64,000 bases of DNA, from positions 1-64,000 of the IMG/VR virus record IMGVR_UViG_3300044701_003572; one strand, given 5' to 3'. Below, piece by piece: positions 336 to 64,000 of this stretch (its first letter is position 1; each line of letters opens with the position of its first letter). This stretch comes from a virus. The position numbers were made by a program, and so were the translations under genes. Below the pieces are notes generated by a model that ran no database searches, had not been told where the DNA came from, and saw nothing but the letters and a program-made list of their open reading frames with translations.

Positions 336-1172
336 TTATCTAGGGGCAAAATCTTGTTGCAATTTGATATTATCAAAGAATTCTTTCTTTGTTCCTTGAT
401 CGTCTTTAAATGCACCTTTTAGTACAGTAGTCTGCGTTAGACTGCTATGTGCCATAATACCGCGATTCTCACAGCAGCCGTGAATTGCTTGAACATAAAC
501 GCCTACGTCTTTGGCTCCTGTGGCCTTGGCGATCTCGCGAGCAATATCATTAGCAAGTTCCTCCTGGAGAGTTCCGCGCCGGGCGCACCACTGTGCGATG
601 CGTGTGTACTTACTAAGTCCAATGAGCTTGGAAGCCGCAATAATACCAATATAGGCAACACCACTAACGGGCTGATGATGATGGCTACACATACTGCGAA
701 GCTCACTGCGAACAACCAACATACCTTCGTAGCGGTCTTCCGTATCGTTAGGGAATGCTGTGGCGTCTGGTGCTGGGTCATATCTTCCTGCCATTATTTC
801 GTTAAAATACATTTTAGCCAATCGACGAGCAGTGCCGTGACTATTAGGATCGTTTTCGCGATCAATTAGCAAACGATCAAGCACTGTTTCAAATGCTTCT
901 GTTGCTTCGTCAATAAGTTTCTCTTTATCGCCTTCGTGTAGAAAGTCACTAATGTTATCTCCAGCCCAAAAACGTTTGCCTTCACGTTTCATTTTAAAGC
1001 GAAGATGATCGCCAAGATATGCTTCTTCGTAGCCCTTGTCACTCATCATTTCCCCAGCTTTAACATAAACTTTCTGGGGAAGTGGAACATACTGATCTTT
1101 AAATTCGTCTTTTACGAATTCTGTGTTTACATTTTCATTTAATACAGGATCTGATTTAAATTTGTTTGTCAA
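336..1172 (-). CDS. folE: GTP cyclohydrolase I
   Basis: Motifs SMCSHHHQP, IGLSKYTRI, LQEEL and HGCCENRG. TTG start preceded by GGAG. Confidence 0.95.
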   Translation of the reverse strand: MTNKFKSDPVLNENVNTEFVKDEFKDQYVPLPQKVYVKAGEMMSDKGYEEAYLGDHLRFKMKREGKRFWAGDNISDFLHEGDKEKLIDEATEAFETVLDRLLIDRENDPNSHGTARRLAKMYFNEIMAGRYDPAPDATAFPNDTEDRYEGMLVVRSELRSMCSHHHQPVSGVAYIGIIAASKLIGLSKYTRIAQWCARRGTLQEELANDIAREIAKATGAKDVGVYVQAIHGCCENRGIMAHSSLTQTTVLKGAFKDDQGTKKEFFDNIKLQQDFAPR

Positions 1173-50138: not shown

Positions 50139-50167
50139 AGTATAACACCATCAGCACCAGTTGTCAA
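50139..50167 (-). promoter_or_regulatory. sigma70-type promoter TTGACA-N17-TATACT
   Basis: -35 at 50162-50167, -10 at 50139-50144. Confidence 0.75.
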
Positions 50168-50939
50168 CAACAAACTTGTCTCTAACGTCTTGAGGTTTTG
50201 GATCACCGTGGAATACTGCCACGCAGCATTCTGGACTTATATTGAGATTATCCTGAGTGTCTTTAAAAAATCGTTTACCCTTTTCATAGATCAGCTCTTC
50301 TCTTTTTCGTATTTCCCACTTGTAACTTAATATCCAATCGGTGGGCCAATATTTGATTTTATTGAAACTTACTTTATAGATCCAATCTTGGTCACCCTGC
50401 AATCTTTGAGCCTCAGATGGGTTAACCATAAATTTTTCATATATTTCTGTTTGGGAACCGTGTCTCCAAGACATCACAGAACTGTTAACAATTTTCCAAT
50501 TGTTATAAAATTTTCTATTAAAATCTTGTATACCGTAAAAACCGTTACCTAAATTTGTCACTAACTTATTGATGTTAGCGTGTATTACAACATCCAAATC
50601 AAAATATAAGATTCTACCGTGTACCGGTAATCGAGAATCGAACATATGAACTTTGTGCCACCAAAGTTTTTTATAAGGACCTGTTGGTTGATAGATGTTT
50701 CTAACTCCGTCAATTGTGTGACGATCGTCAGTTAGACAAACAAATTCATAGGGAACAGTAAGATGTCTTGCGACCATGTTGCGGAGACGTTCAACATATT
50801 CTCTACCGTATCGTGTACCAAATCTCACACAGAGAACGGTGACTTTATCATCTTCAGCTGAAATTACAGATTGTTGATTAAATTTTTCTGCACGTTTTTC
50901 CGCTTTAAGACGTCTACGTTCTTCTTTTGACAATTCCAT
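50151..50939 (-). CDS. GT-A (GT8-like) glycosyltransferase
   Basis: [15 protein letters not shown] (DxD), NSSVM, GDQDWI and VFHGDPKP. Confidence 0.8.
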
Positions 50940-51744
50940 CGATAGCCACCAATTCTTCTAATAGTTCTTTTAATTTATCTAGACGAACCATATTTGGACC
51001 GTCGCTTGGAGCATTGTCTGGATTTTCGTGAGTTTCGATAAAAACTCCAGCAACACAACCTGTAGCTACAGCAGCTCTCGCCAGGTAGGGTACCATGGTC
51101 CGATCTCCACCAGATCGTTCTCCCATTCCTCCAGGTTGCTGTACACTATGAGTGGCATCAAAGACCACTGGATACCCGGTGCTTGCCATAATAGGCAAAC
51201 TGCGCATATCCACAACAAGATTGTTATATCCATGGGTGTATCCTCTTTCGCATAACATAACTCGATCATTCCCGGTAGATGCTATTTTTTCTGCGACATT
51301 TTTCATGTCGTGCGGTGCTAAGAATTGTCCCTTCTTAACATTAACAGCCTTACCGGTACTACCTGCTGCTAGTAGCAAGTCAGTTTGTCTACATAAAAAA
51401 GCTGGTATCTGTAACACATCTGTGCCAGCACTGGCAACTAACTCTGCCTGCCAGCACTCATGAATATCAGTCAATATAGGCATACCAAAAAGATGTTTAA
51501 CAGAATTTAATATTTGTAAACCCTTTTCTAATCCGACACCTCTTTTAGTGTTTATACTGGATCTGTTAGCTTTATCGAAACTGCTTTTATAGATCAAACC
51601 AATATTAAGATCATCGCAGATTTCTTTAATTGATCCTGCTGTTTGATGAGCATGATCTTGACTTTCTATTTGACAAGGGCCAGCGATTAAAAATATTTTG
51701 TTCTTATTGCTGATCTCTACGTGGTTGATTGAAAATGTATGCAT
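50914..51744 (-). CDS. kdsA: KDO-8-phosphate synthase
   Basis: [33 protein letters not shown] and [10 protein letters not shown]. Confidence 0.96.
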
Positions 51745-51752
51745 ATTATTAT

Positions 51753-51944
51753 TTACCAGTGTCTAATGACATTGGCAATAATGAACAGGCAAGTAACTAC
51801 GTGGATAACTACCCAAAAAGTTTTTAGAAACAAAGCTATTCTAGCTTCTCGAATAGTGAGAATAGGCACATCTGGCCTATCCTCGTCAGTTCTGCCCATT
51901 AAATGGCCAGTAGCCCTAGCCCAGATTTTTTCTAAACTGTTCAT
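51753..51944 (-). CDS. small membrane protein
   Basis: C-terminal TM helix; coupled to queD. Confidence 0.7.
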
Positions 51945-52468
51945 CCCTCGTACACTGCCGAGTTTCCTGCGTGTTCAAATACTTCGGCGGATTTTAGTCT
52001 AACACCTTGTCCGACTGGATAACGTGCTTCAAATACACGACCATCCGGATGCGTCCAACCGCGACCTTCTTGATAAGCAGTTAAAATTTCATTCATAGTT
52101 TTGTAAACTAATTCAGCGAACATTTCACAGCCAACACCGTCTACAATACGTAGATCGATGATGCCCATGTTTTTAAATCCGCCTTGGATTTTGTTTAGTT
52201 CTACAAATGTGCCGCGTTCCGGATCGTCTTTGCCGATGACCATAGTATGATCAAACTGCCATTCGCTCCATTCTTTAAAAGCTTTAAGTCCGCCAAAGTC
52301 CATGACCCAATTCCGATCATCTAAGGTTTCAGATTCAAAGATTAGTTTGATGCCAATGGAATAACCATGTAGCAGTGAGCAATGGCTGTGTGTTGAACGC
52401 CATTGTCTAAAACAGCATGACAGGCCTCTGTCGTTACCGTAAGTTTTTGTTGAAAGATATTTCGCCAT
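51941..52468 (-). CDS. queD: 6-carboxytetrahydropterin synthase / PTPS family
   Basis: SHCSLLHGY, VMDFGGLK, FDH, GCEMFA and VFEHAGNSA. Start at ATG 52468 after GGAGG. Confidence 0.85.
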   Translation of the reverse strand: MAKYLSTKTYGNDRGLSCCFRQWRSTHSHCSLLHGYSIGIKLIFESETLDDRNWVMDFGGLKAFKEWSEWQFDHTMVIGKDDPERGTFVELNKIQGGFKNMGIIDLRIVDGVGCEMFAELVYKTMNEILTAYQEGRGWTHPDGRVFEARYPVGQGVRLKSAEVFEHAGNSAVYEG

Positions 52469-52554
52469 CTCTTGCCTCCTATAAAATGCATAAGCGAGTA
52501 AGTTTGATGACACGCAGAGTATTTAAAGAGGGGTGAGCGTCATAGAAGTCCTCT
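52469..52554 (-). ncRNA. candidate riboswitch in the queD leader (preQ1-I-like H-type pseudoknot plus SD-sequestering hairpin)
   Basis: P1 AGAGG/CCUCU; loop AUGACGC pairs with downstream GUGUCAU; A-rich linker. Begins at the predicted +1 of TTGCAC-N17-TAATAT. Confidence 0.6.
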
Positions 52555-52560
52555 ATATGT

Positions 52561-52589
52561 ATATTACACGATATTTAGCTGAAGTGCAA
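52561..52589 (-). promoter_or_regulatory. sigma70-like promoter TTGCAC-N17-TAATAT with a TAAATA in the spacer
   Basis: -35 at 52584-52589, -10 at 52561-52566, TAAATA at 52572-52577. Confidence 0.55.
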
Positions 52590-53211
52590 GACCTTGATCG
52601 ATATTCTTGAAATTCTCTATCTCCATAAAAGAAACATTGTCTAAAATCCACTCTTTAGGCATTTTCCAATCTTTATAATTGACAATGATATATTCTTTAT
52701 GGGTATGATGTTTGAACGTTTCGGATATTTGATAGATCCAAAAACTAGGATCTACTGGTAAAGAATCGGTACTGTTATAATTTTTTGTACCTTTATAGAT
52801 ATTATTAAATTTGTTATTAGTTGAATAAAGATCAAAACCTATGAGATAGATTTGATCATGATCTAATAAACTGGCTACTAATATTGCATACGGACCGCTG
52901 CCCCAATGTTCAGGGTTATCTCTTTTGATATTGCCATTTGTAGGCACTGCAGGAAGTTGACATATATTTTTATTTTTTTGTATCTTTTTGAAAGATTTAT
53001 AAAATCTTTCTCTTACATATATTTTTGTTGATAGATTGTTTTTATTTTCTAATGACTCAAAGACCATTCGATGATCGCAACAAATTAGATGATCGACAGT
53101 AATATCTCTGTGTATAGCGTTGCAACCTACTATCGGATATATCTTCTTGAGATTGTCGATATCAACGGCTGACCTGCTTTCGCCGTTGCCTAAAACTATT
53201 ACCGAGTTCAC
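52564..53211 (-). CDS. DUF115/MptE-like or sialyltransferase-like Rossmann protein
   Basis: VIVLGNGESR, VGCNAI, WGSG and IYLIGFD pattern. Confidence 0.55.
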   Translation of the reverse strand: MNSVIVLGNGESRSAVDIDNLKKIYPIVGCNAIHRDITVDHLICCDHRMVFESLENKNNLSTKIYVRERFYKSFKKIQKNKNICQLPAVPTNGNIKRDNPEHWGSGPYAILVASLLDHDQIYLIGFDLYSTNNKFNNIYKGTKNYNSTDSLPVDPSFWIYQISETFKHHTHKEYIIVNYKDWKMPKEWILDNVSFMEIENFKNIDQGLALQLNIV

Positions 53212-62858: not shown

Positions 62859-63520
62859 TCTAAAATAACACCTGCTCGGGTAATTGATTCAAAAGCACCT
62901 GTAAATGTATCTGGAGTCAGCGTGTTTAAATAAACTTCCTTTTCGCTGATTGCTTTGAAACCTGTAATTGTATTATTTTTTACACCTGCATTGATCAATG
63001 TCATAATCGGTGTGTACGCCAATTGCTTCCAATCATAGTCGCCTTCGATAATTTTAATTTTAAGAAAAGGATCTTGTTCGTTGTATCTCGGTAAAAGAAC
63101 ACGCACATTAAGATGTATTCTAGTTCGAGGTCCCCAATTTGCCGCAACGTGTATTTTGCCTGTGTTCATATACCATAGTTGTCCGTCGGCAGGCAGATGG
63201 TATAATTTGTTGTCAGTTATATCAACTAAAAAACTGTAAGGATTGGTAATAATAGCAAGATGTATTCGATCATCTGGATCAGCGTGTGCAGTATATGACT
63301 CCGCAGATTCTAGTTTAAGAAGTCTAGCCTGCCCAATATTTCCTAAAGACTTTAATACCTCACCTAACGGAGTTGATTCAAACTCCGGCAAAATTATCCA
63401 AGGATCATGAAAGAAAGATCCAGAAGGTTTATTCAAGTCTAGACGTTTTTCAAATACCAAATCATCAACTTGTTGTATAATGGGTTCTATAGAAAATTTT
63501 TGGTCGAGTTTAGTAAGCAT
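62840..63520 (-). CDS. 2OG-Fe(II) oxygenase, aspartyl/asparaginyl beta-hydroxylase-like
   Basis: HAD...H triad (YTAHADPD, KIHVAAN) and a downstream RIHL. Confidence 0.7.
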   Translation of the reverse strand: MLTKLDQKFSIEPIIQQVDDLVFEKRLDLNKPSGSFFHDPWIILPEFESTPLGEVLKSLGNIGQARLLKLESAESYTAHADPDDRIHLAIITNPYSFLVDITDNKLYHLPADGQLWYMNTGKIHVAANWGPRTRIHLNVRVLLPRYNEQDPFLKIKIIEGDYDWKQLAYTPIMTLINAGVKNNTITGFKAISEKEVYLNTLTPDTFTGAFESITRAGVILDYQYCI

Positions 63521-63530
63521 AATTATACTT

Positions 63531-64000
63531 ATGAAAGTAGATATACCGTTTGATAATAATTGGAAAAGTGTTGCTATTGCGGTAAGTGGCGGCGCTGATA
63601 GCGCATTACTGACATTTCTAGTTTGTCAAACAGTAACAGAAAGAAATATTAATCCTTTTACTGTACACGTTATTAATAACATTAGATGCTGGAAGACTAA
63701 GCCCTGGCAACAAAGCGATTTTAAAAAAGTTTATAATTGGTTAGTTCAACGATTTCCAAAAATTAATTTTCAAATACACACAAATTTCGTACCTCCTGAA
63801 CTAGAATGGGCCAATAAAGGTCCTAGCATTATCGATGAATACGGTAAGTTAGTCAGTGGAGACACACTAGAATTAAGATCCTTTGCAGAATTTGTATGCA
63901 TCAATCAGGATGTTGATGCATATTTCAATGGCGTTACACGAAATCCAAAAGGCGTTGATTTTCAGGGAATGCATACTAGAGATATAGAACCTACCGAAGA
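63531..64000 (+). CDS. PP-loop ATPase (QueC/TilS-superfamily-like), truncated by the window edge
   Basis: Manual translation MKVDIPFDNNWKSVAIAVSGGADSALL...; the frame stays open to the window end. Confidence 0.75.
   Translation, partial: MKVDIPFDNNWKSVAIAVSGGADSALLTFLVCQTVTERNINPFTVHVINNIRCWKTKPWQQSDFKKVYNWLVQRFPKINFQIHTNFVPPELEWANKGPSIIDEYGKLVSGDTLELRSFAEFVCINQDVDAYFNGVTRNPKGVDFQGMHTRDIEPTE

Follow-up and report, generated by a model that had tools for sequence, protein, structure and literature searches.

A candidate phage-borne ON-type riboswitch with a preQ1-I-related pseudoknot in the leader of a QueD-like gene

The leader of a QueD-like gene in the IMG/VR phage record IMGVR_UViG_3300044701_003572 contains an RNA element with a fold related to that of the preQ1-I class. 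On comparative sequence grounds, this element is a strong candidate for a riboswitch of the ON type that phages carry and that is so far undescribed. The window analyzed here is the stretch from position 1 to 64,000 of this 86-kb record (64,000 nucleotides, nt), and the element lies on its minus strand. Comparison across more than 200 uncultured-phage loci provides good support for the view that the leader element is a real, conserved and structured cis-regulatory RNA. It probably acts as a translational ON riboswitch, in which an H-type pseudoknot aptamer is joined to a platform that pairs with the ribosome binding site (RBS). That a small molecule binds, the likely identity of this ligand and the direction of switching in vivo are inferred.

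The leader is 95 nt in length (52469–52563) and is intergenic, because the upstream open reading frame (ORF) already stops at 52564. It precedes an ORF of 175 amino acids, the AUG of which is located at 52468–52466. The leader encodes an H-type pseudoknot of ~65 nt (Table 1), in which two invariant G-C pairs close the 5-bp P1 helix, loop 3 is rich in A and the P2 helix is long. P2 begins with two near-invariant pairs (C-G and A-U), followed by a U/C mismatch and four to seven variable pairs. The P1 strands AGAGG and CCUCU and the seven base pairs joining the loop AUGACGC to GUGUCAU, which an earlier note on this DNA had described, are present on the minus strand as quoted.

Table 1. Coordinates of the leader element, its platform and associated features in the window
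Feature	Position	Strand	Remark
P1 5' strand, AGAGG	52550–52554	-	Pairs with 52527–52531
P1 3' strand, CCUCU	52527–52531	-	Pairs with 52550–52554
Loop 1, ACUUCU	52544–52549	-	First nucleotide variable, then invariant C and U
P2 5' strand, AUGACGC	52537–52543	-	7 bp with 52507–52513, one of them G-U
P2 3' strand (switching sequence), GUGUCAU	52507–52513	-	Partner of loop AUGACGC or, alternatively, of the start region
U and CA	52534–52536	-	U mismatched with C 52514; CA pairs with UG 52515–52516, lengthening P2
UG, then invariant C	52514–52516	-	UG pairs with CA 52534–52535
Loop 2, CC	52532–52533	-	C 52532 invariant, directly 5' of the P1 3' strand
Loop 3, UUAAAUACUC	52517–52526	-	Three invariant alternating A residues, then YUC
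Shine-Dalgarno sequence, AGGAGG	52475–52480	-	Partly paired in the platform minimum free energy structure
GAUGGC, start codon (52466–52468) and flanks	52464–52469	-	Alternative partner of the P2 3' strand
QueD-like (PTPS-family) gene	51941–52468	-	Pfam PTPS 6.7e-13; phrog_2389 3.2e-32
FolE (GTP cyclohydrolase I) gene	366–899	-	2.0e-40; very start of the record
Putative -35 box, TTGCAC	52584–52589	-	3/6 consensus positions; weak match, predicted
Putative -10 box, TAATAT	52561–52566	-	Overlaps the upstream ORF stop codon; ends 6 nt before P1

The unpaired positions of the knot are constrained to very different degrees. Across 141 unique instances, the first nucleotide of loop 1 is T in 52, A in 46 and C in 43, while the second and third are C and T without exception (141/141 each). 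The invariant cytosine of loop 2 at 52532 occupies the position of the specificity cytosine of preQ1-I riboswitches and is retained in 136 of 136 aligned sequences. In the unique instances with a 5-nt loop 2 (139 of 142), the base preceding this cytosine is U in 99, C in 25 and A in 15. Loop 3 has the invariant columns A32, A34, A36, T38 and C39 (window-row numbering) in the same 136 sequences. A refinement of the earlier description is the pairing of CA in loop 2 with UG in loop 3, nested inside P2 beyond the U/C mismatch (C52535-G52515 and A52534-U52516 in the window). The first of these added pairs is C-G in 134 of the aligned sequences and U-A in one (L054). The second is A-U in 26 and G-C in 4 of a separate set of 30 sequences, and is never unpaired there; G-C replaces A-U in the L300 group, which precedes canonical QueD, and in L374, L404, L393 and L396. 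The two natural pair swaps provide ready-made compensatory mutants. Because the CA/UG pairs extend P2, loop 2 shrinks to two nucleotides, a variable base and the invariant C, as in preQ1-I, for which the available part of a review describes UC or AC directly before the P1 3' strand (PMC11625349).

The window sequence alone offers nothing beyond chance. Its leader has a minimum free energy (MFE) of -16.8 kcal/mol, compared with -17.6 ± 2.9 for shuffled sequences (z +0.28; 118 of 200 shuffles fold as well), and the MFE structure does not use P1. The evidence beyond chance is comparative. The QueD-like protein identified 592 relatives among 598 candidate IMG/VR stretches, the best 80 loci of which were used (73–99% identity, on contigs of up to 357 kb), and the motif is common to the leaders of these protein-fetched loci. 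A degenerate 23-letter pattern that spans loop 2, the 3' strand of P1 and loop 3 and leaves the P1 5' strand free matched at least 120 further stretches. Among the 120 pattern matches listed, all five P1 pairs form in 115 and four of five in the other five.

Three alignments were evaluated. The first (A1), a MAFFT alignment of 48 unique cores from leaders fetched through the QueD-like protein, has P1 paired in 240 of 240 cells, with compensatory variation at pair 3 (CG 31, AU 9, UA 8) and pair 1 (AU 43, UA 4, GU 1). Over the whole knot, 87.7% of its cells are paired, compared with 33–51% in slid registers, and its covariation score was reached by 0 of 500 shuffles; P1 was recovered unaided by RNAalifold. 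The second alignment (A2) consists of 136 sequences pre-selected for a perfect P1, so that only its P2 counts are unbiased. It has 89.4% of cells paired versus 74.1% when shuffled, and a covariation score of 0.383 versus 0.125, neither of which was reached by any of 500 shuffles; slid registers are 32–52% paired. The two top pairs of P1 are G-C in all 136 sequences. In addition, one P1 variant (ACCGG/CCGGU) has its second pair swapped. The third alignment (A3) was fitted to the model and is made up of 30 distinct sequences, the loci of which were retrieved with a QueD-like protein of another subtype; it has 91.2% of cells paired, a value again reached by 0 of 500 shuffles.

With the register anchored at the junction, the first five positions of P2 are paired in 614 of 710 cells, versus 138/426 to 352/710 in shifted registers. 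Position 1 takes all four Watson-Crick types (TA 75, CG 20, AT 20, GC 13), and P2 as a whole is 83–87% paired, a single position having as many as six types of pair. The proposal of the earlier note, a preQ1-I-like pseudoknot with an enlarged P2 in the queD leader, is borne out in this respect: the knot is conserved and covaries across the more than 200 loci, and the examination of phage queD leaders for covariation gave a positive result in each alignment.

The P2 3' strand has a second potential partner. In the window MFE structure, GUCAUC (52511–52506) pairs with GAUGGC (52469–52464), which covers the start codon, and the P2 duplex and this anti-start duplex are isoenergetic at -8.7 kcal/mol each. 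The hairpin CUUAUG/UAUAGG, which the earlier note had seen as occluding the Shine-Dalgarno (SD) sequence, occurs in this structure, nested within the longer helix of the P2 3' strand and the AUG; the SD sequence is partly paired in this structure. Across the instances, in which the P2 3' strand begins 16–45 nt before the AUG, the platform MFE pairs at least four of the first seven bases of this strand with the region from -14 to +6 around the AUG in 133 of 141, compared with 481 of 1410 once the strand is shuffled. Opening the ribosome site costs 8.57 kcal/mol, and 4.91 kcal/mol once five bases of the P2 3' strand are sequestered; the mean drop is 3.66 kcal/mol, and a drop of more than 1 kcal/mol is found in 132 of 141. 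The P2 3' strand also covaries with the start region, as in CAUC/GAUG, CAUUG/CAAUG, AAGUCAUC/GAUGACUU and UGUCAUA/UAUGACA, and another subtype has a CCUAUG/CAUAGG hairpin that covers the SD sequence and has this strand as its 5' arm. The knot and the anti-RBS pairings are mutually exclusive; therefore, whatever stabilizes the knot should expose the ribosome site, as in an ON switch.

A model for regulation can be drawn from these pairings. When the knot is not stabilized, its P2 3' strand would hide the RBS and queD would be left untranslated. Stabilization of the knot, for which the most likely agent is a small heterocycle resembling guanine and recognized by the invariant C of loop 2, would capture the P2 3' strand and free the ribosome site, permitting queD translation. 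This logic reverses the feedback repression proposed in the earlier note: in the alternative fold the P2 3' strand pairs with the start codon or SD sequence, so the knot is predicted to turn translation on. The adenine (add) class is likewise a translational ON riboswitch, in which the ligand-stabilized aptamer competes with a helix that hides the SD sequence or start codon. That class has a three-way junction where the phage element has an H-type pseudoknot, and the genes controlled differ.

The covarying aptamer in the 5' leader of a metabolic gene, with a platform offering mutually exclusive pairings, is what is generally expected of a riboswitch, and it resembles preQ1-I (RF00522; types I–III in PMC11625349) in several features. 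As far as the available text of that review describes them, preQ1-I aptamers are also small H-type pseudoknots in the leaders of queuosine-precursor genes, with a conserved G-C pair closing the 5-bp P1, a P2 formed between the loop and a 3' tail, an invariant cytosine directly 5' of the P1 3' strand that is preceded by U, A (or C), and an A-rich loop 3 lying along P1. The phage knot differs in its P2 of 7–10 layers, compared with 3–4 in preQ1-I, in a 10-nt loop 3 that ends in YUC instead of A, and in a first loop-1 base that is not a conserved U. Its P2 leaves the SD sequence unburied and contributes its 3' strand as an anti-RBS strand, with a predicted ON logic; the preQ1-I OFF platform, in which the P2 3' strand includes SD bases or favors a terminator, is absent from the phage leader. 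Furthermore, the phage knot was found only in uncultured phages and falls below the Rfam model.

The same mixture is apparent in the ligand pocket, for which the available text of PMC11625349 lists four class I features: the G-C floor, the specificity C, a loop-1 U and a terminal loop-3 A. The G-C floor of P1 and the specificity C are kept, although the 25 instances in which C precedes the latter fit neither the U of type I nor the A of types II and III. The loop-1 first-position U (U6, which reads N9-H of preQ1) is not kept, this position being T in 52, A in 46 and C in 43, nor is the last A of loop 3 (A30, which reads N3/N2 of the ligand), loop 3 ending in an invariant U-C. Scanning the window against all of Rfam at the gathering score identified no family. 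At E <= 10, the 251-nt region 52400–52650 yielded no preQ1 family and a single match, a chance snoRNA. When RF00522 alone was run on the 86-kb record at E <= 10, none of its four matches fell at the leader and the best, located elsewhere, reached 12.8 bits, compared with the Rfam gathering score of 39 bits; 20 diverse related loci gave no family at the gathering score in the all-Rfam scan. The preQ1 model search that the earlier note suggested therefore gave no match for the leader, and its view of the element as a preQ1-I variant stands for the topology, the invariant C and the A-rich loop 3 and fails for the Rfam score and for two of the four pocket features. Judged by these comparisons, the element is a preQ1-I-type knot in its fold that falls outside the family. 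The preQ1-II (RF01054) and preQ1-III (RF02680) models had no match in the all-Rfam scans of the window, the leader region and the 20 relatives. Aptamers of these two classes are pseudoknotted, are found at queuosine genes and use a cytosine to read a guanine-like face, according to the available part of PMC11625349; they differ in having HLout folds with extra helices, while the phage aptamer lacks an embedded hairpin.

The distribution of the motif links it to QueD-type genes. A covariance model (R1), built on A2 with P2 as structure, matched the window once (58 bits, E 3.8e-12). It had exactly one strong match in each of five genomes, namely the window's own 86-kb record and a further four contigs (282–382 kb), two of which CheckV rated 100% complete, and this match always preceded the sole PTPS-family gene. 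R1 also matched 76 of the best 80 protein-fetched loci (it is absent from L031, L059, L065 and L072, and L020 is cut at the locus end) and 100 of 100 further pattern loci, none of which has a second copy. Loci of a distant QueD-like subtype were matched in 39 of 79 cases at E <= 1, 34 of those at E < 0.001, and the motif lies directly upstream in 11 of 80 loci fetched through canonical QueD. A QueD-type ORF is present in 160 of 160 loci examined, and the genes behind the motif comprise at least five divergent QueD-like subtypes, all of them phrog_2389. The motif is thus exclusively linked to QueD-type genes.

The habitat of the window's phage is lake water: the stretch is found in freshwater and lake metagenomes, and no RNA run was found to contain it. 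A scan of 185,579 species genomes with the pattern yielded 55 matches; seven of them are real, all on contigs of metagenome-assembled genomes (MAGs) of at most 32 kb, and two of these seven belong to a marine 'Rickettsiales' MAG. The other 48 were rejected as chance matches that have no P1 or P2 pairing and no QueD-type start. In cultured phages, blastn of the region returned coding matches only, tblastn matches to three QueD-like subtypes did not exceed 56% identity, and R1 with filters off reached at best 10 bits on 11 cultured-phage queD loci, most of which have no leader at all. No isolate carrying the motif was found among the cultured-phage loci examined, a set that leaves aside ~100 further QueD-like records. 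Full-text searches that reached neither subscription journals nor supplementary files did not reveal a description of the motif; the word 'phage' does not occur in the available text of the review PMC11625349, nor 'riboswitch' in that of Hutinet 2019 (PMC6884629).

Several considerations weigh against a ligand-controlled ON switch. Besides the pre-selection of A2 and the fitting of A3, the shuffle controls overstate significance, because the instances are kin to each other. Cognate duplexes between the P2 strand and the RBS average -8.19 kcal/mol versus -6.28 for non-cognate ones, a modest gap that reflects the similarity of most start regions. The start of the transcript, and transcription itself, are presumed from the sequence, and the promoter agrees with the consensus at just 7 of 12 positions, a weak match. 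Control of a biosynthetic gene by an ON switch is without precedent among preQ1 riboswitches as treated in the available text of PMC11625349, which describes only SD burial and termination for them. A protein, instead of a metabolite, could stabilize the knot. Finally, TTTACA-N18-TGCTATAAT can also be read across loop 3 and the platform in a large subtype of relatives, and part of the conservation in that subtype could therefore be that of a promoter.

These considerations lead to four alternatives. The element might be a divergent but ordinary preQ1-I riboswitch that binds preQ1 or preQ0 and subjects queD to control by the pathway end product. The shared topology, the G-C-closed 5-bp P1, the invariant C and the A-rich loop 3 speak for this, as does the occurrence of QueD genes under bacterial preQ1 riboswitches (both as given in the available part of PMC11625349); the failure of RF00522 and the all-Rfam scans at the leader and in 20 relatives, the variable U6 equivalent, the YUC end of loop 3 and the reversed logic with the SD sequence outside P2 make it unlikely. 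Another view is that the leader is a protein-binding translational operator or enhancer, on which a phage or host protein, possibly the QueD-like protein itself, sets the balance between the knot and the anti-RBS helix. The mRNA of T4 gene 32, with its 5' pseudoknot, offers a likeness for such an operator. A structure with an alternative pairing would suit a protein effector equally, and the motif is confined to phages, considering that the seven real matches of the 55 in species genomes lie on short MAG contigs. However, this knot is found ahead of canonical QueD and of five divergent QueD-like subtypes, on contigs from ~15 kb to 382 kb, so that it is not obvious which protein, apart from a host factor, all of them could have as a partner, and the invariant unpaired bases (C/U in loop 1, C in loop 2, the A residues and UC in loop 3) resemble those of ligand pockets. 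Protein control is accordingly rated as quite unlikely.

A ligand-free element, i.e., a 5' stabilizer, kinetic timer or thermosensor in which the knot forms first and the anti-RBS helix later, would agree with the isoenergetic helices of the window, the transcription of the aptamer ahead of the platform and a lake water habitat in which temperatures vary. It leaves the strict conservation of unpaired loops and the exclusive association with QueD unexplained, and appears very unlikely. The last alternative, conservation at the DNA level as a promoter or operator with incidental RNA pairings, draws on the TTTACA-N18-TGCTATAAT boxes of one subtype and on the resemblance of loop 3 to AT-rich promoter boxes. 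It is extremely improbable, as the complementarity of P1, P2 and both added pairs is preserved by compensatory changes where the sequence differs, and the window subtype has no -10-like box and no promoter detected there by scanning.

Two complete relatives encode FolE, a QueE-like gene and one QueD-like gene; the QueE-like radical SAM gene follows FolE (phrog_2076, 1.5e-52). TGT/DpdA was not detected in any of the five genomes, two of them complete, by PF01702 or with DpdA of phage Iggy. For QueC, weak partial PF06508 matches occur in three of the five and Iggy QueC matches none; PF06508 has no match in the 86-kb record of the window. A PP-loop ORF at 63480–64253 of the record was rejected as QueC, having only an ATP_bind_3 match of 20.3 bits, below the cut-off. 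The flanks of 160 motif loci contain QueE-like genes in 28–29, FolE in 34, QueC in 1 and DpdA in 0. Neither QueC nor DpdA lies near the motif in the 11 canonical-QueD loci that carry it, whereas the 69 without it lie mostly in QueE/QueC/FolE clusters, some with DpdA. By these gene contents, the motif marks phages with a FolE-QueD-QueE set, not DpdA-type DNA modifiers. Such a set would make 7-carboxy-7-deazaguanine (CDG) by the established pathway. The earlier note had placed the switch in the supply of precursors for a DNA-modification pathway, a link that is unsupported because no clear QueC and no DpdA were found, including in the two complete relatives. The available text of Hutinet 2019 (PMC6884629) reports dPreQ1 in the DNA of a virus that lacks DpdA, and a missing DpdA therefore does not exclude DNA modification.

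Two kinds of ligand are possible on equal terms: a pterin, such as the QueD substrate 7,8-dihydroneopterin triphosphate, and a 7-deazapurine, such as preQ0, preQ1 or CDG. The pterin would rank level with the 7-deazapurines because only QueD lies behind the motif and the predicted logic is ON. Another purine is a doubtful candidate. A more specific and rather speculative proposal is a phage-only class built on the preQ1-I scaffold that responds to what QueD consumes, 7,8-dihydroneopterin triphosphate or another pterin related to it, and works as an ON valve of the feed-forward kind. Located at the folate/7-deazaguanine branch, this valve would divert the pterin pool only after the phage FolE has filled it. 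If this were true, nature would have a riboswitch for that pterin intermediate, and the preQ1 family an ON-wired relative. Confirmation of the riboswitch as such would establish a new class carried by phages, abundant in lake viromes and present on contigs of a marine MAG, in which the smallest known riboswitch scaffold is wired in the opposite sense. Phages would then control their own auxiliary metabolic genes through metabolite sensors. Such a finding would supply a compact ON-type aptamer for synthetic biology and could point to the key metabolite where phages with FolE, QueD and QueE and without detectable QueC or DpdA rewire 7-deazapurine/pterin metabolism.

The NCBIfam QueD model gives 35.1 bits for the window protein, under the cut-off of 89.25, and ~30–37 bits for the QueD-like subtypes generally (cut-off 89). 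All of these subtypes (the window gene and L086, L087, L097 and L114) have C-x3-HGY and (F/Y)RQ(W/P) motifs, in which two of the three canonical zinc histidines are presumably replaced, as compared by eye. In L046 the motif precedes a canonical QueD gene with an HGH motif and the QueD-like gene comes next. This tandem of canonical QueD (HGH zinc motif) and QueD-like gene with one motif copy lies at 2576–3525 of L046, on the same contig as L319, and recurs in L290, L291, L298 and L322; the QueD-like member has HGY, with FRQW replacing the first His region. The arrangement suggests that the QueD-like family does something other than canonical QueD.

The promoter proposed in the earlier note, TTGCAC-N17-TAATAT, is a weak and putative one. 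Both hexamers are present with a 17-nt spacer, and the first A of P1, taken by the note as the transcript start, lies 6 nt past TAATAT; a sigma-70 scan of 52300–52800 found no sites, and the boxes agree with the consensus only to the extent given above. In relatives, the region from -14 to -7 before P1 is 78–91% A+T, and of 138 unique upstream sequences, 40 have their best -10-like hexamer ending 6–9 nt ahead of P1, which argues weakly for a promoter there. The two embedded boxes of the large subtype occur together in 43 of the 49 instances whose loop 3 contains ACAAA and in 2 of the 92 that lack this sequence; the -10-like embedded box is missing from the subtype of the window. In L021, L042, L090 and L094, for example, TTTACA or TATACA in loop 3 and TGCTATAAT or TGCTAAAAT in the loop of the SD-hiding hairpin form a near-consensus sigma-70 promoter with an extended -10. 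These boxes could provide a second, riboswitch-independent transcript start inside the switch. A terminator-like hairpin with a T run at 52419–52432 on the minus strand lies inside the queD-like coding region and is probably a chance occurrence.

In the window, the QueD-like gene is surrounded by sugar genes and lies outside any que cluster (50151–53211, minus strand), its neighbors including a Kdo-8-P synthase-type DAHP_synth_1 gene (7.2e-70) and a phrog_1962 glycosyltransferase. The ORF directly upstream matches phrog_30607 and has a weakly CST-I-like N-terminus. In complete relatives, FolE is followed by a 124-amino-acid ORF, to which Pfam, NCBIfam and PHROGs offer no match, and by the QueE-like gene; in the record of the window, these downstream partners of FolE would fall past the contig end. 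From 60195 to the end of the window at 64000, and on to ~69400 of the record (L449), there is a dense radical SAM island comprising six of ten scanned ORFs. The weak PP-loop (ATP_bind_3) ORF lies within this island, and one of the radical SAM genes has a SPASM domain at its N-terminus.

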